From: a virus
Lineage: Duplodnaviria; Heunggongvirae; Uroviricota; Caudoviricetes
Reading direction: 5' to 3' (one strand)
IMG/VR virus record: IMGVR_UViG_2531839474_000011
Length of the DNA: 8,076 bases
Shown: piece after piece, positions 1,426-8,076 of the stretch
Layout of the letters: each line of letters opens with the position of its first letter
Numbering within the stretch: position 1 is the first letter of the stretch
Notes under the pieces: model-generated
The model's database searches: none
Told to the model about the DNA's origin: nothing
The model's input: only the letters and a program-made list of their open reading frames with translations
Position numbers and translations under genes: made by a program

Positions 1426-2489
1426 ATTTCAATTTTGTCCCACTCCCTGCCTCTGTCATCACGATACTGTGATGCCATGGTGTCCGACTTATGCCCGAGA
1501 AGATGTTGAGCAAACTTATCGCTTATCTGCTTCTCATAGAGTCTTGCAGACAAACTGCGCAACTCGTGAAAGGTAGGCGGATCCCCTTCGAAGGAAAGAC
1601 CTGATGCTTTTCGTGCGCGCATAAAATACCTTGATACTGTGCCGGATGAAAGCGGTTCACGACGAGTAGATGCAATTATGGTTTCTCCGCCAAGAATCTC
1701 TTTGCATTTATCAAGTGTTTCCTTCATTGATATCCCGAGAGCATCAACATGCAATGTTGTTGGGATGGCAATTTTTACGCCTGTTTTGCTTTGCTCGACA
1801 TAAAGATATCCATCTACGATATCAGACCACTTCATTTCGCATAAATCACCAACTCGCTGCCCGGTAACAACAGCCAGTTCCATTGCAAGTCTGAGCCAAC
1901 ATGGTGATGATTCTGCTGCTTGATAAATTTTCAGGTATTCGTCAGCCGTAAGTCTTGATCTCCTTACCTCTGATTTTGCTGCGCGAGTGGCAGCGACAGG
2001 GTTTGTTGTTATATGGCCTTCAGCTATTGCCTCTCGGAATGCATCGCTCAGTGTTGATCTGATTAACTTGGCTGATGCCGCCTTGCCCTCGTCTATGTAT
2101 CCATTGAGCATTGCCGCAATTTCTTTTGTGGTGATGTCTTCAAGTGGAGCATCAGGCAGACCCCTCCTTATTGCTTTAATTTTGCTCATGTAATTTATGA
2201 GTGTCTTCTGCTTGATTCCTCTGCTGGCGAGTATTTTTTCGTAGCGATCAAGCCATGAATGTAACGTAACAGAATTATCACTGTTGATTCTCGCTGTCAG
2301 AGGCTTGTGTTTGTGTCCTGAAAATAACTCAATGTTTGCCTGTATTGCTTCAGTAATTGCTATCCTCCTGTCTCTGCCTAATCCGAACTCTTTACCCGTC
2401 CTTGGGTCCCTGTAGCAGTAATATCCATTGTTTCTTATATAAAGGTTAGGGGGTAAATCCCGGCGCTCATGACTTCGCCTTCTTCCCAT
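1419..2489 (-). CDS. int: lambda integrase (tyrosine site-specific recombinase)
   Basis: 356-aa ORF beginning MGRRRSHERRDLPPNLYIRNNGYYCYRDPRTGKEFGLG and ending ...HLLGHKSDTMASQYRDDRGREWDKIEIK. Matches lambda Int in length and sequence from memory; contains the tyrosine-recombinase catalytic region (HELRS...HLLGH...Y). Position is adjacent to attL. Confidence 0.97.
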   Translation of the reverse strand: MGRRRSHERRDLPPNLYIRNNGYYCYRDPRTGKEFGLGRDRRIAITEAIQANIELFSGHKHKPLTARINSDNSVTLHSWLDRYEKILASRGIKQKTLINYMSKIKAIRRGLPDAPLEDITTKEIAAMLNGYIDEGKAASAKLIRSTLSDAFREAIAEGHITTNPVAATRAAKSEVRRSRLTADEYLKIYQAAESSPCWLRLAMELAVVTGQRVGDLCEMKWSDIVDGYLYVEQSKTGVKIAIPTTLHVDALGISMKETLDKCKEILGGETIIASTRREPLSSGTVSRYFMRARKASGLSFEGDPPTFHELRSLSARLYEKQISDKFAQHLLGHKSDTMASQYRDDRGREWDKIEIK

Positions 2490-2685
2490 TTCTGATTCTC
2501 TTCAAAAGGCTACCTGTTACTGGTCGATTTAAGTCAACCTTTACCGCTGATTCGTGGAACAGATACTCTCTTCCATCCTTAACTGGAGGAGGGAATATCC
2601 TGCATTCGCGCACCCATCGACGAACTGTTTCAAGGCTTCTTGGGCGCCGCTGGCGTGCGTTCCACTCCTGAAGTGTTAAGTACAT
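2467..2685 (-). CDS. xis: lambda excisionase Xis (72 aa)
   Basis: MYLTLQEWNARQRRPRSLETVRRWVRECRIFPPPVKDGREYLFHESAVKVDLNRPVTGSLLKRIRNGKKAKS. ATG at 2685-2683. Overlaps int by 23 nt as in lambda. The 30-codon upstream extension in the ORF track is not used. Confidence 0.93.
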   Translation of the reverse strand: MYLTLQEWNARQRRPRSLETVRRWVRECRIFPPPVKDGREYLFHESAVKVDLNRPVTGSLLKRIRNGKKAKS

Positions 2686-2697
2686 CGCAAAGTCTCC

Positions 2698-2711
2698 GCA
2701 ATTACACGCAA
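2698..2711 (-). promoter_or_regulatory. cII-binding box TTGC-N6-TTGC of the pI (int) promoter, inside the xis 5' region
   Basis: Minus strand reads TTGCGTGTAATTGC (direct TTGC repeat, 6-nt spacer) 13 nt upstream of the xis ATG. This places the pI transcript start inside xis, so pI transcripts encode Int but not Xis (known lambda arrangement). Confidence 0.65.
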
Positions 2712-2733
2712 GAAAAAACCGCATTGATGCGGC
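2710..2733 (-). terminator. putative intrinsic terminator (5-6 bp GC stem + T-run) downstream of the IS2-interrupted gene
   Basis: Minus strand GCCGCATCAATGCGG followed by TTTTTTCTT. A second perfect 7-bp hairpin GCCTCAC-ACTCG-GTGAGGC lies at 2769-2787 without a T-run. The T-run runs into the cII box of pI. Confidence 0.4.
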
Positions 2734-2802
2734 GATGGTAGGTCTGGATATCATTGAGCAATGAACAGGCCTCACCGAGTGTGAGGCGGTGTTATTTCAT
2801 GG

Positions 2803-2846
2803 TTAGTCCTTGCGTAGCTCGCTGATTCTTCTGTAAGTCTCTGGTG
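2803..2846 (-). pseudogene. 3' remnant (last 14 codons + stop) of the accessory gene split by IS2
   Basis: Joining 4183 to 2846 across the IS2 and its 5-bp duplication restores an uninterrupted frame ending ...KIHGNK-APETYRRISELRKD with TAA at 2805-2803. Confidence 0.6.
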
Positions 2847-2851
2847 CTTTG
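2847..2851. repeat. IS2 target-site duplication, left copy (CTTTG)
   Basis: CTTTG immediately outside the IS2 left end; identical 5-mer at 4183-4187 immediately outside the right end. 5 bp is the duplication size known for IS2. Confidence 0.85.
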
Positions 2852-2892
2852 TAGACTGGCCCCCTGAATCTCCAGACAACCAGTATCACTTA
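2852..2892. repeat. IS2 left terminal inverted repeat (IRL)
   Basis: Imperfect inverted complement of 4142-4182. Confidence 0.75.
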
Positions 2893-2942
2893 AATAAGTG
2901 ATAGTCTTAATACTAGTTTTTAGACTAGTCATTGGAGAACAG

Positions 2943-3308
2943 ATGATTGATGTCTTAGGGCCGGAGAAACGCAGACGGCGTACCACACAGGAAAAGATCG
3001 CAATTGTTCAGCAGAGCTTTGAACCGGGGATGACGGTCTCCCTCGTTGCCCGGCAACATGGTGTAGCAGCCAGCCAGTTATTTCTCTGGCGTAAGCAATA
3101 CCAGGAAGGAAGTCTTACTGCTGTCGCCGCCGGAGAACAGGTTGTTCCTGCCTCTGAACTTGCTGCCGCCATGAAGCAGATTAAAGAACTCCAGCGCCTG
3201 CTCGGCAAGAAAACGATGGAAAATGAACTCCTCAAAGAAGCCGTTGAATATGGACGGGCAAAAAAGTGGATAGCGCACGCGCCCTTATTGCCCGGGGATG
3301 GGGAGTAA
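2943..3308 (+). CDS. insC: IS2 InsC (OrfA; helix-turn-helix transposase subunit/regulator)
   Basis: 121 aa: [56 protein letters not shown]... Start ATG at 2943 is preferred over the upstream ATG at 2898 given in the ORF track. Confidence 0.9.
3260..3266 (+). other. programmed -1 ribosomal frameshift heptamer A-AAA-AAG (produces the InsCD fusion transposase)
   Basis: AAAAAAG in the insC zero frame (gcA AAA AAG tgg = A-K-K-W), at the start of the insC/insD overlap. Characteristic of IS2 and IS3-family elements. Confidence 0.75.
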
Positions 3309-4171
3309 GCTTAGTCAGCCGTTGTCTCCGGGTGTCGCGTGCGCAGTTGCACGTCATTCTCAGACGAACCGATGACTGGATGGATGGCCGCCGCAGTCGT
3401 CACACTGATGATACGGATGTGCTTCTCCGTATACACCATGTTATCGGAGAGCTGCCCACGTATGGTTATCGTCGGGTATGGGCGCTGCTTCGCAGACAGG
3501 CAGAACTTGATGGTATGCCTGCGATCAATGCCAAACGTGTTTACCGGATCATGCGCCAGAATGCGCTGTTGCTTGAGCGAAAACCTGCTGTACCGCCATC
3601 GAAACGGGCACATACAGGCAGAGTGGCCGTGAAAGAAAGCAATCAGCGATGGTGCTCTGACGGGTTCGAGTTCTGCTGTGATAACGGAGAGAGACTGCGT
3701 GTCACGTTCGCGCTGGACTGCTGTGATCGTGAGGCACTGCACTGGGCGGTCACTACCGGCGGCTTCAACAGTGAAACAGTACAGGACGTCATGCTGGGAG
3801 CGGTGGAACGCCGCTTCGGCAACGATCTTCCGTCGTCTCCAGTGGAGTGGCTGACGGATAATGGTTCATGCTACCGGGCTAATGAAACACGCCAGTTCGC
3901 CCGGATGTTGGGACTTGAACCGAAGAACACGGCGGTGCGGAGTCCGGAGAGTAACGGAATAGCAGAGAGCTTCGTGAAAACGATAAAGCGTGACTACATC
4001 AGTATCATGCCCAAACCAGACGGGTTAACGGCAGCAAAGAACCTTGCAGAGGCGTTCGAGCATTATAACGAATGGCATCCGCATAGTGCGCTGGGTTATC
4101 GCTCGCCACGGGAATATCTGCGGCAGCGGGCTTGTAATGGGTTAAGTGATAACAGATGTCTGGAAATATAG
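3266..4171 (+). CDS. insD: IS2 InsD (OrfB; DDE transposase catalytic domain, rve/integrase core)
   Basis: 301-aa ORF in the -1 frame relative to insC, starting [20 protein letters not shown]... and ending ...[31 protein letters not shown]. The in-frame start codon at 3266 is GTG. Confidence 0.9.
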
Positions 4172-4182
4172 GGGCAAATCCA
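4142..4182. repeat. IS2 right terminal inverted repeat (IRR)
   Basis: Imperfect inverted complement of IRL; ends ...TATAGGGGCAAATCCA at 4182. Confidence 0.75.
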
Positions 4183-4187
4183 CTTTG
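4183..4187. repeat. IS2 target-site duplication, right copy (CTTTG)
   Basis: Identical to 2847-2851. Confidence 0.85.
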
Positions 4188-4483
4188 TTTCCGTGTATCT
4201 TCATTTCAGACTTCAACAGAGCAACGAGGGAATCCCATTCGTTGAGGATTCCTTTGAATGCCGGAACGCGCTTTGCAACCTTGTTGAATGAATCTCTGAT
4301 TTCTGGAATCTGCTCAACAAGTGCAACGCATCGTCTGAAATCGGCTGCGTCATGGGGAGCGCCGAAGTGATGACCATAGATATTCTTTTTCAGTCCACAT
4401 GCGATTGAGGCAAGAGTTGCGCTACTGATGCCAACATCGCCAGTCGATTGCCATTTCAAAACCTTCATAGCCAAATCTGACAT
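4183..4483 (-). pseudogene. 5' portion of a phage accessory gene of unknown function, cut by IS2 14 codons before its stop
   Basis: Likely start ATG 4483-4481 (MSDLAMKVLKWQSTGDVGISSATLASIACGLKKNIYGHHFGAPHDAADFRRC...) with GGAGA Shine-Dalgarno 6 nt upstream. The ORF-track start at 4510 lacks a Shine-Dalgarno and sits in a terminator hairpin. The frame continues into the IS2 IRR, where 13 IS2-encoded residues ([13 protein letters not shown]) replace the native C-terminus. Confidence 0.6.
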
Positions 4484-4494
4484 TTCTTGTCTCC

Positions 4495-4517
4495 AATAAA
4501 AAACCGCCATCAGGCGG
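4495..4517 (-). terminator. putative intrinsic terminator between the zinc-ribbon ORF and the IS2-interrupted gene
   Basis: Minus strand CCGCC-TGAT-GGCGG followed by TTTTTTATT; the T-run directly abuts the GGAGA Shine-Dalgarno of the next gene. Confidence 0.45.
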
Positions 4518-4583
4518 CTTGGTGTTCTTTCAGTTCTTCAATTCGAATATTGGTTACATTGTTTTCATATATGAATAAATAAA

Positions 4584-4763
4584 TTAGCTTTTTTCGTTGC
4601 CTTCGCGTTCTTTATTAATTTTGACAAAATCGTTTTTACCACGCTCTCCAAATACGTCTTTAGAGTCGTTGTATCCGCAATCGCAGCACACATAATCATC
4701 AGACCATCCACGCATTGTTTTTTCTTTTGCAATATTTCCAGAACCGCATTTTGGACAAGACAT
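4584..4763 (-). CDS. small Cys4 zinc-ribbon protein (59 aa), function unknown
   Basis: MSCPKCGSGNIAKEKTMRGWSDDYVCCDCGYNDSKDVFGERGKNDFVKINKEREGNEKS with CxxC...CCxC. Strong GGAGG Shine-Dalgarno 7 nt upstream of ATG 4763; the longer 70-aa version starting at 4796 has none. AT-rich local composition. Confidence 0.55.
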   Translation of the reverse strand: MSCPKCGSGNIAKEKTMRGWSDDYVCCDCGYNDSKDVFGERGKNDFVKINKEREGNEKS

Positions 4764-4859
4764 ATCACTACCTCCAAAGCATGAGAGAGATGACAACGTA
4801 ACATTGATTGGAGATTAACAATAGATTGCTGATGTAAAAGATATGTATAAGCTTAGCTA

Positions 4860-5507
4860 TCAAAGAGGAGGTTCTGGTAGTTGCATCCAGTCGGTTACAT
4901 TGCGACTCTGTGTTTCGAAAAATTCATCACCATTGCGGACAATATCGAAAAACTCTCCGTCTCGATATTGCGCATAAAGAACGAATGCGCCATCACATAA
5001 AATAATTACGTGCTGACCATCATCTGGCATTAGCTCACTACAGCTTATCCAACCATCCGGAGTTACCGGAGAGTTGCCGGGTTCTTTAATGTGCAAACGA
5101 GGCTCACCATCTTTTGGTTCAGGCCACTGACGCTCCATGTTGATCTTCAATTTATTTTCCATAGCAGCGGTAATTTCAGCATCACTGATACCGGCACGGC
5201 GCTGTGCATCCCACAACAGGAACTGCATATCAGCCCACTCGCTGAGATCGTCAGGTTCGGCTGCGGCTTCCAGAGCCTCTTTTGAGAGGTGTTTCAGTGG
5301 ACCAATGGGGCCAACGCAGCCAAATGTGGAGTCAGACCATTTGGCATGCTCGTGGCGAACCCGCTCGCGTTCCAGTGAGGCGAGAGCGATTTTAAATGCT
5401 GTAAGCATGTGTGCTTGATCGTTATCGAGTCCGAATGGCATTTCATCTCGTGCTGACTCAATACTGGTAATCGTATTTTGTAGCCATTCCATGGTAAAAG
5501 TGCTCAT
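4860..5507 (-). CDS. 215-aa phage accessory protein; two-domain architecture resembling the DUF550/DUF551 class found near Ea22-like genes (unverified)
   Basis: ATG overlaps the upstream stop in an ATGA junction (5504-5507). Acidic N-terminal region; C-terminal region GWISCSELMPDDGQHVIILCDGAFVLYAQYRDGEFFDIVRNGDEFFETQSRNVTDWMQLPEPP. The domain assignment is from memory only. Confidence 0.65.
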   Translation of the reverse strand: MSTFTMEWLQNTITSIESARDEMPFGLDNDQAHMLTAFKIALASLERERVRHEHAKWSDSTFGCVGPIGPLKHLSKEALEAAAEPDDLSEWADMQFLLWDAQRRAGISDAEITAAMENKLKINMERQWPEPKDGEPRLHIKEPGNSPVTPDGWISCSELMPDDGQHVIILCDGAFVLYAQYRDGEFFDIVRNGDEFFETQSRNVTDWMQLPEPPL

Positions 5508-5875
5508 CGTAAAATATCCTCTATACTGGTAAGCCCTTCATTATTTAGCCAGATCATTGCGTCATCCGGCAACTTGCTGTCTGGTTTTGCGTTTTTGAGA
5601 GAGGAACTCAGTCGCTTAATCCACATTGTCAGCTCAGTAATGCGCCTGTGTTTGCCTTCCAGCTCAACGCGCAGCCTCCCTACCGTTAGTGCAATATCCT
5701 CGTTCTCCTTGTCGCGGCGTTTGATGTATTGCTGGTTTCTTTCCCGTTCATCCAGCAGTGCCAGCACAATCGATGGTGTTACCAGCTCATGGAAAAGGTC
5801 CGCGTCAAATCCCCAGTTGTCATGCATTGCCTGCTCTGCCGCTTCACGCAGTGCCTGAGAGTTAATTTCGCTCAC
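5504..5875 (-). CDS. Ea22-like protein, short variant (123 aa)
   Basis: N-terminus MSEINSQALREAAEQAMHDNWGFDADLFHELVTPSIVLALLDERERNQQYIKRRD resembles the lambda Ea22 N-terminus from memory. The rest is predicted coiled coil and the protein is shorter than lambda Ea22 (182 aa). GTG start with GAGAGG Shine-Dalgarno; GTGA overlap with the upstream stop. Confidence 0.7.
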   Translation of the reverse strand: MSEINSQALREAAEQAMHDNWGFDADLFHELVTPSIVLALLDERERNQQYIKRRDKENEDIALTVGRLRVELEGKHRRITELTMWIKRLSSSLKNAKPDSKLPDDAMIWLNNEGLTSIEDILR

Positions 5876-6093
5876 TTCGAACCTCTCTGTTTACTGATAA
5901 GCTCCAGAACTTCCTGGCAACTTGCACAAGTCCGACAACCCTGAACGGCCAGGCGTCTTCGCTCATCTATGGGATCGCCACACTCACAACAATGAGTGGC
6001 AGATATAGCCTGGTGGTCCAGGCGGCGCATTTTTATTGCTGTGTTGCGCTGTAATTCTTCAATTTCTGATGCTGAATCAATGATGTCTGCCAT
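5872..6093 (-). CDS. DksA/TraR-family C4 zinc-finger protein (73 aa), TraR-like RNA polymerase secondary-channel regulator
   Basis: MADIIDSASEIEELQRNTAIKMRRLDHQAISATHCCECGDPIDERRRLAVQGCRTCASCQEVLELISKQRGSK. CxxC-x14-CxxC spacing and 73-aa length, as in F-plasmid TraR and the lambda TraR homolog. Confidence 0.8.
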   Translation of the reverse strand: MADIIDSASEIEELQRNTAIKMRRLDHQAISATHCCECGDPIDERRRLAVQGCRTCASCQEVLELISKQRGSK

Positions 6094-6142
6094 CTTTCAT
6101 TAATCCCTGAATTGTTGGTTAATACGCTTGAGGGTGAATGCG

Positions 6143-6169
6143 AATAATAAAAAAGGAGCCTGTAGCTCC
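6143..6169 (-). terminator. putative intrinsic terminator (GGAGC-TACAG-GCTCC + TTTTTTATTATT)
   Basis: 5-bp GC-rich stem with a long T-run on the minus strand, in the 98-nt gap between the 93-aa ORF and the TraR-like gene. Confidence 0.35.
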
Positions 6170-6191
6170 ATGATGATTTTGTTTTTCATGC

Positions 6192-6473
6192 TCACCGTTC
6201 CTTAAAGACGCCGTTTAACATGCCGATCGCCAGGCTTAAATGAGTCGGTGTGAATCCCATCAGCGTTACCGTTTCGCGGTGCTTCTTCAGTACGCTACGG
6301 CAAATGTCATCGACGTTTTTATCCGGAAACTGCTGTCTGGCTTTTTTGATTTCAGAATTAGCCTGACGGGCAATGCTGCGAAGGGCGTTTTCCTGCTGAG
6401 GTGTCACTGAACAAGCCCCATGTCGGCAAGCATAAGCACACAGAATATGAAGCCCGCTGCCAGAAAAATGCAT
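6192..6473 (-). CDS. hypothetical protein (93 aa), start uncertain
   Basis: ORF MHFSGSGLHILCAYACRHGACSVTPQQENALRSIARQANSEIKKARQQFPDKNVDDICRSVLKKHRETVTLMGFTPTHLSLAIGMLNGVFKER. No clear Shine-Dalgarno at the ATG, which lies 10 nt after the orf63 stop, so coupling is possible. An alternative GTG start at V23 has a GGGG motif upstream. Confidence 0.45.
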   Translation of the reverse strand: MHFSGSGLHILCAYACRHGACSVTPQQENALRSIARQANSEIKKARQQFPDKNVDDICRSVLKKHRETVTLMGFTPTHLSLAIGMLNGVFKER

Positions 6474-6483
6474 TCAGTGGTTG

Positions 6484-6675
6484 TCATACCTGGTCTCTCT
6501 CATCTGCTTCTGCTTTCGCCACCATCATTTCCAGTTTTTGTGAAAGGGATGTGGCTAACGTATGAAATTCTTCGTCTGTTTCTACTGGTATTGGCACAAA
6601 CCTGATTCCAATTTGAGCAAGGCTATGTGCCATCTCGATACTCGTTCTTAACTCAACAGGAGATGCTTTGTGCAT
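6484..6675 (-). CDS. orf63: lambda Orf63-like protein (63 aa)
   Basis: [69 protein letters not shown] Shine-Dalgarno. Size, 28-nt overlap with the upstream gene and position relative to exo match lambda orf63. Confidence 0.7.
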   Translation of the reverse strand: MHKASPVELRTSIEMAHSLAQIGIRFVPIPVETDEEFHTLATSLSQKLEMMVAKAEADERDQV

Positions 6676-6830
6676 ACAGCCCCTCGTTTATTATTTATCT
6701 CCTCAGCCAGCCGCTGTGCTTTCAGTGGATTTCGGATAACAGAAAGGCCGGGAAATACCCAGCCTCGCTTTGTAACGGAGTAGACGAAAGTGATTGCGCC
6801 TACCCGGATATTATCGTGAGGATGCGTCAT
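6648..6830 (-). CDS. orf60a: lambda Orf60a-like protein (60 aa)
   Basis: [63 protein letters not shown] at 6830 forms an ATGA overlap with the exo stop, as in lambda. The ORF-track start two codons upstream (6836) is an alternative. Confidence 0.7.
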
Positions 6831-7507
6831 CGCCATTGCTCCCCAAATACAAAACCAATTTCAGCCAGTGCCTCGTCCATTTTTTCGATGAACTCCGGCA
6901 CCATCTCGTCAAAACTCGCCATGTACTTTTCATCCCGCTCAACCACGACATAATGCAGTCCTTCACGCTTCATACGCGGGTCATAGTTGGCAAAGTACCA
7001 GGCATCTTTTCGTGTCACCCACATGCTGTACTGCACCTGGGCCATGTAAGCCGACTTTATGGCCTCGAAACCACCGAGCCGGAACTTCATGAAATCCCGG
7101 GAGGTAAACGGGCATTTCAGCTCAAGGCCATTGCCGTCACTGCATAAACCATCGGGAGAGCAGGCGGTGCGCATACTTTCGTCGCGATAGATGATCGGGG
7201 ATTCAGTAACATTCACGCCGGAAGTGAATTCAAACAGGGTTCTGGCGTCGTTCTCGTACTGTTTTCCCCATGCCAGCGCCTTAGCATTAACTTCCGGAGC
7301 CACACCGGTGCAAACCTCAGCCAGCAGGGTGTGGAAGTAGGACATTTTCATGTCAGGCCACTTCTTTCCTGAGCGGGGCTTGGCTATCACGTTGTGAACT
7401 TCTGAAGCGGTGATGACGCCGAGCCGTAATTTGTGCCATGCATCATCCCCCTGTTCGACAGCTCTCACGTCGATCCCGGTACGCTGCAGGATAATGTCCG
7501 GTGTCAT
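6827..7507 (-). CDS. exo: lambda exonuclease (Red-alpha; 5'-3' dsDNA exonuclease)
   Basis: 226 aa, [69 protein letters not shown]...[11 protein letters not shown]. Recognised as lambda Exo. ATGA overlap with the bet stop. Confidence 0.95.
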
Positions 7508-8076
7508 GCTGCCACCTTCTGCTCAGTGGCTTTCTGTTTCAGGAATCCAAGAGCTTTCACTGCTTCGGCCTGTGTCAGTTCTGACGATGCGCGAATGTCG
7601 CGGCGAAATATCTGGGAACAGAGCGGCAATAAGTCGTCATCCCATGTTTTGTCCAGGGCAATCAGCAGAGTGTTAATCTCCTGCATGGTTTCATCGTTAA
7701 CCGGAGTAATGTCGCGTTCCGGCTGACGTTCTGCGGTGTATGCGGTATTTTCGACAATGCGCTCGGCTTCATCCTTGTCATAGATACCAGCAAATCCGAA
7801 GGCCAGACGGGCACACTGAATCATGGCTTTATGCCGTAACATCCGTTTGGGATGCGACTGCCACGGCCCCGTAATTTCTCTGCCTTCGCGGGTTTTGAAT
7901 GGTTCGCGACGGCATTCATCCATCCACTCGGTAACGCAGATCGGATGATTACGGTCCTTGCGGTAAATCCGGCATGTACAGGATTCATTGTCCTGCTCAA
8001 AGTCCATGCCATCAAACTGCTGGTTTTCATTGATGATGCGGGACCAGCCATCAACGCCCACCACCGGAACGATGCC
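7504..8076 (-). CDS. bet: lambda Bet (Red-beta single-strand annealing protein), C-terminal 190 codons; 5' end lies beyond the window
   Basis: In-frame to the window edge, ending ...[26 protein letters not shown] with TGA at 7506-7504. Matches the lambda Bet C-terminus from memory. The ATG at 8064 in the ORF track is internal. Confidence 0.95.

Follow-up and report, generated by a model that had tools for sequence, protein, structure and literature searches.

What occupies the DNA between xis and exo in a prophage that otherwise resembles bacteriophage lambda, and does it form a new functional cassette? We addressed this question in an 8,076-nucleotide stretch of viral DNA (IMG/VR record IMGVR_UViG_2531839474_000011, Caudoviricetes), hereafter called the window. 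A first-pass annotation, made from the sequence without database searches, had placed a mosaic accessory module at 4183-6093 of the window. It listed five open reading frames (ORFs): one interrupted by IS2, one encoding a Cys4 zinc ribbon, one of 215 amino acids with two domains, a short Ea22-like one and a TraR-like one. The set was proposed as a candidate for an undescribed function in host takeover, exclusion or anti-defence. Our analysis shows that the region is very probably the variable, promoter-distal half of the exo-xis ('ea') region, into which P22-type genes were swapped by recombination at short patches, and that its genes are separate accessory genes.

Relation of the window to lambda

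At attB-lambda, next to the E. coli gene ybhC, the window contains the left end of a lambda-like prophage (Table 1). Every ORF from int (1419) to bet (7504 onward), including the five named above, lies on the minus strand. When the window was compared with lambda by blastn, positions 1331-2733 matched lambda 27724-29126 at 97.9%, positions 5657-8076 matched lambda 30177-32597 at 97.2%, and a 64-bp island at 4494-4557 matched lambda 29102-29165 at 98.4%. Apart from this island, 2734-5656 is non-lambda DNA; collinearity covers attL, int and xis on one side and returns at 5657 on the other. The returning sequence includes a conserved lambda-type block (DUF1317, DUF1382, orf61, orf73 and the Ea22 N-terminus) with 97% DNA identity, and divergence begins inside ea22, at 5656/5657. 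A conserved orf60a-orf63-orf61-orf73-ea22 block followed by a variable gene set has been described in this region (Donaldson 2021, PMC8614690).

Much of the first-pass annotation agreed with these results. Its lambda-like int-xis and orf63-orf60a-exo-bet blocks were recovered, as were the IS2-interrupted, zinc-ribbon and 215-amino-acid ORFs, and the AT-rich dip it reported is seen in the GC profile, which falls to 0.38-0.40 across 4351-4950 and is ~0.45-0.57 elsewhere. It was also right to expect a mosaic accessory region in the non-essential xis-exo interval, whose variability (PMC8614690) and Ea22 mosaicism (PMC10834534) are known. The extent it gave has to be changed, because 4183 is merely the right end of IS2 and the interrupted gene and its flank continue at 2734-2851. 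The whole region had been held to differ from lambda. This is true of 2734-5656, apart from the island, but orf73 and the Ea22 N-terminus are collinear with lambda. The Ea22-like ORF exists and its tail is different, but its first 73 residues are those of lambda Ea22. The TraR-like ORF is not a difference at all: since lambda collinearity covers it from 5657, it is lambda Orf73. The lambda record NC_001416 leaves orf73 unannotated, which probably misled the earlier annotation. The picture of lambda is thereby corrected, as orf73 and the Ea22 N-terminus belong to lambda.

Table 1. Features of the window and the basis on which each was placed
Feature	Position	Strand	Description and basis
ybhC, E. 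coli host gene	1-1284	minus	Window start
attL core GCTTTTTTATACTAA	1331-1345		Junction of ybhC and prophage P' arm; read from sequence; first lambda-collinear base, = lambda 27724
int, lambda-type	1419-2489	minus	97.9% nucleotide identity to lambda over 1331-2733; RefSeq annotation of closest relative
xis, lambda-type	2467-2685	minus	72 amino acids; same basis as int
Terminator-like hairpin and T-run, 434-type variant of lambda t'I	2709-2733 (stem 2718-2733)	minus	Just upstream of xis; last lambda-collinear segment
Conserved patch, xis side of slot A	2737-2809		86% identity to P22 L06296 1370-1441, beside eaC; blastn
orf114, 3' fragment	2803-2851	minus	Last 14 codons, stop and one target-duplication copy; aligned to uninterrupted gene L001:4302-4646
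IS2, complete, 1331 bp	2852-4182	plus	CTTTG duplication at 2847-2851 and 4183-4187; 100% identical to APEC O78 IS2
orf114, 5' fragment	4183-4483	minus	100 native codons, then 13 IS2-encoded codons, stop at 4142; phrog_1229
Recombination patch 1	4494-4557	minus	98% to lambda 29102-29165 and to P22
t'I terminator hairpin	4501-4520		Inside patch 1
Last 16 codons of lambda orf55	4510-4557		VTNIRIEELKEHQAA and stop; inside patch 1
eaG	4584-4763	minus	59-amino-acid Cys4 zinc ribbon; GGAGG ribosome-binding site; 93% amino acid identity to P22 EaG; RefSeq 'Eag protein'
eaA homologue	4860-5507	minus	215 amino acids; leader ~1-39, DUF550 MazG-like core ~46-146, DUF551 152-214
Short Ea22/EaD-family gene	5504-5875	minus	123 amino acids; residues 1-73 lambda-type, 74-123 alternative tail
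Recombination patch 2	5648-5758		= lambda 30168-30278, within ea22/eaD; lambda collinearity back at 5657
orf73, TraR homologue	5872-6093	minus	73 amino acids; conserved lambda block, not variable module

A P22-type module between two short patches

The non-lambda segment 4558-5656 sits exactly between two patches that lambda and P22 have in common. Both are recorded in the P22 entry L06296, patch 1 as 'identical to 29106..29165 in bacteriophage lambda' together with terminator t'I, and patch 2 with the note '98 out of 111 bp are identical to 30168..30278 in bacteriophage lambda'. When lambda was compared with P22 by blastn, lambda 29102-29165 and 30168-30278 were the only sequences shared in this region. 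Window 4477-4899 matched P22 at 96.7% identity. Because 4558-5656 is bounded exactly by the two shared patches and its genes match the P22 series, this interval (slot B) represents a P22-type ea cassette in a lambda backbone.

This arrangement points to cassette exchange, in which homologous recombination at short conserved patches would have put alternative gene sets into fixed slots. Slot B, from the t'I patch (4494-4557) to the coiled-coil patch of ea22/eaD (from 5648/5657), would have received eaG and the eaA homologue together with an alternative 3' end of ea22; lambda holds orf55, ea8.5 and the ea22 C-terminal domain in this slot. Slot A, from xis to t'I, would hold an orf114 of the 434/Huey type, where P22 has eaC and lambda nothing. 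Insertion of IS2 into orf114 would be a later event that removed the last helix of the protein.

Similarity also switches between phages inside genes, at ~5391 and ~5026-5070, which are the boundaries between leader, DUF550 core and DUF551 of the eaA homologue. Few sequenced phages have the segment 5392-5656, which spans the Ea22 tail and the beginning of the next gene; its only recurrence is a diverged gene-junction module in ST64B, N15 and FSL SP-016. In PHROG matches, the same N- and C-terminal modules turn up in other families. Chimeric database proteins likewise point to recombination among the genes of this region. That Ea22 has a mosaic make-up and that DUF551 is a portable domain had already been described in the Ea22 nuclear magnetic resonance (NMR) paper (PMC10834534).

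The closest relative, RefSeq chromosome NZ_CP148323, matches the window in two blocks, 2-2852 at 98.8% and 4183-8076 at 99.6%, which overlap by six bases in the reference. An inserted IS2 is the difference between the window and this chromosome. RefSeq names genes in this relative 'hypothetical protein', 'Eag protein', 'dATP/dGTP pyrophosphohydrolase domain-containing protein' and 'ead/Ea22-like family protein'. The components, the flanking patches and a 100% identical, IS2-free copy are already in public annotation, and the region is a known kind of mosaic accessory region. What is not lambda's own among the five genes is no novel cassette but an ea module of the P22 type (eaG, eaA, eaD-like).

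orf114 and IS2 in slot A

The ORF interrupted by IS2 is orf114. The intact protein (114 codons) has a confident all-alpha structure prediction, with a predicted local distance difference test score (pLDDT) of 92.5, and none of the solved structures proved to be a relative of the predicted fold. Phage records with a homologue number 276 and range from those of enterobacterial phages to those of Vibrio and Arthrobacter phages. The inserted element has inverted repeats at 2861-2893 and 4142-4174 and two overlapping ORFs at 2898-3308 and 3266-4171, as expected of IS2 (IS3 family).

orf114 is bracketed by 25-nucleotide direct repeats at 2709-2733 and 4494-4518, which are 80% identical; each forms a minus-strand terminator-like hairpin with a T-run. 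The equivalent of the 2709-2733 element is annotated as a terminator in phage 434. The repeats look like a duplication of the t'I terminator made when the gene was inserted. We considered orf114 as a 'moron' with a promoter of its own, given its place between two terminator-like hairpins; a promoter-like site was not found on its strand.

Homology between orf114 and DUF550 was also considered and rejected. It had been suggested by a 92-amino-acid protein with PF04447 (P0183); this protein and P0135 are chimeric recombinants, joined at a shared 'GIS' stretch. Many database proteins (P0135, P0138, P0150, P0157, P0173 and P0183) carry orf114 fragments fused to DUF550, ERF, Ea22 or Kil sequences, the joint in P0135 falling at 'GIS'. 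These fusions may be natural recombinants or deletion derivatives of this region and could mislead homology searches.

Three prophage variants at attB-lambda carry IS2 in the xis-to-ea22 interval, at 2852-4182 in the window, ~4206-5536 in locus L003 and 3574-4904 in locus L004. The variants are those of the window, E. coli strain 582 and APEC O78, and IS2 has the same orientation in all, opposite to the operon. A shared insertion was excluded by the differing target duplications (CTTTG, ATTTC and GTAAG); because both sites and duplications differ, the three insertions are independent. Their recurrence could reflect a target preference of IS2, or it could mean that a separation of xis/int or the ea genes from upstream transcription was selected for.

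EaG

EaG is a small zinc-ribbon protein and a presumed host modulator. An exhaustive profile search in 1.84 billion proteins returned 21 representatives of its family. In another frame, a 79-amino-acid ORF (4565-4804, minus strand) overlaps eaG, and it is this frame that is annotated in phage Huey. The C-terminal tails of EaG relatives in the database, the Salmonella phage 22 copy (P0199, 'Eag protein') among them, alternate between the two frames, and some relatives read through into the orf55 remnant; conservation is limited to the zinc-ribbon half.

The EaA homologue

The 215-amino-acid protein matched PF04447 over residues 51-145 (142.7 bits, cut-off 23; E = 4.5e-42) and PF04448 (DUF551) over residues 152-214 (64.6 bits, cut-off 22). 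Both domains are present in P22 EaA, to which it is 78% identical in the core and 45% in DUF551. The metal-binding motif E77-A-L-E80 / E90-W-A-D93 is invariant in 18 homologues that are 77-99% identical, and it aligns with the EIGE/EVAD residues of MazZ (PDB 7ODY), although that sequence match is weak (E = 0.028). The DUF550 enzyme of the Z-genome phage SH-Ab 15497 hydrolyses dATP and dGTP to deoxynucleoside monophosphate and pyrophosphate (PMC12884076). Judged from these sequence features, the EaA homologue is most likely a metal-dependent (deoxy)nucleoside triphosphate pyrophosphohydrolase and trims the nucleotide pool; DUF551 would be a portable domain for partner binding. No purZ/datZ context was found around the gene, and it therefore cannot feed Z-base (2-aminoadenine) synthesis here.

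The short Ea22 and Orf73

The short Ea22 matched PF13935 (Ead/Ea22) with 77.2 bits (cut-off 27). Its first 73 codons are lambda-type because collinearity resumes at 5657, inside ea22. In protein alignment 70 of the 81 first aligned residues are identical to lambda Ea22, and similarity ends at about residue 73-81; identity to P22 EaD is 50%. The protein lacks the lambda-type C-terminal dimerisation domain that was solved by NMR, and it had no sequence match in PDB. It probably consists of the N-terminal region and Ead/Ea22 core shared with lambda, joined to a different C-terminal tail. Since similarity to lambda ends where it does, the short Ea22 is a variant of the family and not an orthologue of full-length Ea22.

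Orf73 is identical to lambda Orf73 at 70 of 73 residues (96%), and the D3-I-I-D6-S-A8 motif and six cysteines are kept. The N-terminal DxxDxA motif and a CxxC...CxxC zinc site are hallmarks of TraR/DksA proteins (PMC8614690). The protein scored 35 bits with PF01258 (cut-off 24.9) and 56.1 with TIGR02419, marginally below the cut-off of 59.7. Lambda Orf73 is an RNA polymerase-binding protein that inhibits promoters of rRNA and r-proteins and increases the yield of phage 3- to 4-fold (PMC9239242).

Ratios of non-synonymous to synonymous polymorphism (pN/pS) are 0.07-0.17 for orf114 (0.07 against phage Huey), the DUF550 core (0.13), the Ea22 N-terminus and orf73 (against lambda). Purifying selection of this strength supports these four as real genes.

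Expression and neighbouring features

The ea genes are co-directional with exo, xis and int and are tightly packed or overlapping: the ea22 stop and the eaA start share ATGA at 5504-5507, and the orf73 stop and the ea22 start share GTGA at 5872-5875. No promoter-like site was found on their strand in 2400-6500, the single one detected lying on the plus strand. For these reasons read-through from pL is the expected mode of expression. In an intact phage the genes would be read in the N-antiterminated early-left transcript from pL, straight through the t'I-type hairpins, as in lambda and P22. Their products would act as separate non-essential host modulators and not as one machine, a role that we infer for all but Orf73. 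A search of Rfam gave no match at E of 1 or less except one chance match inside int, and no tRNA was found.

Two further observations concern the flanking lambda-type genes. The mechanical ORF list gives xis as a GTG-initiated frame of 102 amino acids (2467-2775, minus strand), and the extension beyond the 72-amino-acid lambda equivalent is probably not real. A third terminator-like hairpin, at 6155-6169 on the minus strand and followed by TTTTTT, lies in the lambda-type orf61/orf73 spacer; its folding z-score is -2.7.

One system, separate genes or a relic

On one alternative reading, suggested by the first-pass annotation, the five genes would form one coordinated host-takeover, exclusion or anti-defence system, working together and inherited as a unit. 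The location is a recognised accessory-gene hotspot, the genes are co-directional, two pairs overlap by 4 nucleotides in a way consistent with co-translation, and an enzyme of the nucleotide pyrophosphohydrolase type would in principle be capable of destroying nucleotides used in immune signalling or of depleting deoxynucleoside triphosphates. The distribution of the genes nevertheless makes such a system very improbable. In a survey of 5426 complete E. coli genomes, orf114 was present in 963, the eaG module in 331 and the junction of ea22 tail and eaA leader in 70, a difference of more than tenfold between modules; some piece of 4183-6093 occurred in 4289 genomes, but at least 80% of it in only 15. 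Phages carry different subsets: 434 has orf114 only, Huey has orf114 and eaG without eaA, VSe13 and P22 have eaG, eaA and eaD with eaC replacing orf114, and all three are absent from lambda. Recombination joints lie inside the genes, which would break a co-adapted system, and two of the five are ordinary lambda genes. PADLOC-DB v2 gave no meaningful defence-system match for any ORF (zinc-ribbon-level noise, E 0.007-0.04). Because the modules assort independently, phages carry different subsets and no PADLOC defence model was matched, we regard them as separate accessory genes that share an operon. A narrower proposal concerns EaG, which might be a protein of the Lar/RalR type that alleviates type I restriction or acts as a small DNase toxin, like the zinc ribbon between recT and xis of the Rac prophage. 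Its size, Cys4 pattern and position between recombination genes and xis resemble K-12 ralR, many EaG clusters bear a precomputed PF14354 label, and a sub-threshold match to Lar_restr_allev (22.8 bits, E = 1e-4) occurs in 10 of 14 family members. These scores stay below the curated cut-offs, however (28.6 bits for PF14354; 14.5 against 39.6 for TIGR03655). None of the 10 relatives scanned against Pfam, from the 21 in the family, reached the Lar threshold, the generic zinc-ribbon models HVO_2753 and TFIIB score as well, hhalign of the profile with the K-12 RalR sequence gave 17% probability, and no RalA-like or other Rfam RNA was found. A Lar/RalR identity is accordingly improbable. It is also unlikely that at least one of orf114, the EaA-type DUF550-DUF551 protein and EaG is a genuine effector of counter-defence or host takeover that acts through an undescribed mechanism. 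If so, the MazG-like domain of EaA, for example, might hydrolyse an immune signalling nucleotide or a (deoxy)nucleoside triphosphate that a defence system needs, with DUF551 providing the targeting. The phrase 'undescribed function' in the earlier annotation is fair only in so far as EaG, EaA and orf114 are biochemically uncharacterised; the gene set itself is catalogued.

Several findings weigh against reading the region as a set of accessory genes in use. The prophage of NZ_CP148323 has no kil, cIII, N, pL, cI, cro, cII, O or P, the immunity and replication region from kil to P being deleted. Beyond the position of the window's right end (L001 8458-9739 and L011 1-3100), gam is directly joined to a ren fragment, emrE and ybcK, a DLP12-like segment, while Q and the lysis, head and tail genes are retained. 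With the kil-to-P genes gone, that prophage is defective and without an immunity region; in its lineage the ea operon is left without its promoter and is possibly silent. Should the prophage of the window have the same deletion, the cassette may be silent in its host too. The window ends inside bet, and pL transcription is here argued by analogy. One gene, orf114, is already broken by IS2. eaG gives no signal of purifying selection (pN/pS ~0.85 against VSe13; 0 synonymous and 3 non-synonymous changes against Huey), although these counts are very small, and frameshifts make the EaG C-terminal tail differ from one relative to another. For the 215-amino-acid protein the structure model is poor (pLDDT 58), and the MazG-like fold is therefore argued from the Pfam matches, the motif and the weak PDB match. 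In the literature searched there were no enzymatic or phenotypic data for lambdoid or P22 EaA, EaG or orf114, and nothing useful on P22 Ea functions. It is possible, if doubtful, that the region is an inert relic in a decaying promoterless prophage, with its exo-xis genes unexpressed and without current function for phage or host. The deletion in a relative 99.6% identical over 4183-8076 fits such a relic, as does the position of the sole promoter-like site in 2400-6500 on the opposite strand. So do the disruption of orf114 between the upstream genes and xis-int and the independent IS2 insertions of two further prophage variants in the same interval. The immunity region is outside the window, however, so that its deletion is seen in the relative only. 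Apart from orf114, every ORF is intact and has identical copies in several genomes, the gene families are under purifying selection across phages, and genes of cryptic prophages can affect host stress phenotypes, as for the DUF551 protein YfdS (PMC4776307, PMC10834534). The relic explanation also concerns present activity and is compatible with the origin and architecture favoured here, namely P22-type accessory genes exchanged into a lambda backbone.

Comparison with other phages

As an example of modules exchanged between lambda-like and P22-like phages at short conserved patches, one of them a terminator and the other a coiled-coil coding segment, the region is a clean one. Exact breakpoints are given here, and the principle of exchange reaches down to domain boundaries within genes. 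Three widespread protein families are of modest residual interest: orf114/phrog_1229, EaG and EaA-type DUF550-DUF551 proteins outside Z-genome phages.

Compared with lambda's exo-xis region (orf55, ea8.5, ea22, orf73, orf61, orf63, orf60a), the window shares position, strand and operon logic. Its orf73, orf61, orf63, orf60a, exo, bet and first 73 ea22 codons have 97% DNA identity to lambda, and both carry the t'I patch. Of lambda orf55 the window keeps a 16-codon remnant. It lacks the body of orf55, ea8.5 and the Ea22 C-terminal dimerisation domain, in place of which stand eaG, the eaA homologue and a tail of Ea22 that is unrelated; relative to lambda, orf114 is an extra gene, located between xis and t'I.

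The P22 ea region (eaC-t'I-eaG-eaA-eaI-eaD, L06296) has the same order of t'I hairpin, eaG, eaA-type gene and eaD/ea22-type gene, and the same two lambda-identity patches flank the module. Unlike P22, the window has no eaI, orf114 stands in place of eaC, and the int-xis and orf73-to-bet blocks are lambda-type. Its EaA homologue is shorter than P22 EaA (215 against 317 amino acids), its N-terminal leader is different and its DUF551 has diverged. A hybrid of lambda and P22 types, the ea22/eaD gene has a 50-amino-acid tail that is rare in sequenced phages.

Phages 434 (OL657226) and Huey (PQ850609) are collinear with the window from xis through the terminator variant and orf114 to t'I, at 97% identity, and their orf114 carries no IS2. 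Past t'I, Huey continues into eaG like the window, but the gene after eaG is not eaA; 434 has a full orf55 and then plus-strand membrane-protein genes, unlike the window. The Lar/RalR protein of the Rac prophage, known for restriction alleviation and as a type I toxin, is like EaG a Cys4 zinc ribbon of ~60 amino acids between the recombination genes and xis of a lambdoid prophage. EaG differs in falling below the curated family thresholds, and no antisense RalA-like RNA was detected with it. The DUF550/MazZ dATP-dGTP pyrophosphohydrolases of Z-genome phages (SH-Ab 15497; S-2L MazZ, PDB 7ODY) have PF04447 and the ExxE...ExxD motif in common with the EaA homologue, which is fused to DUF551 and not, as in that comparison, to DUF5664.

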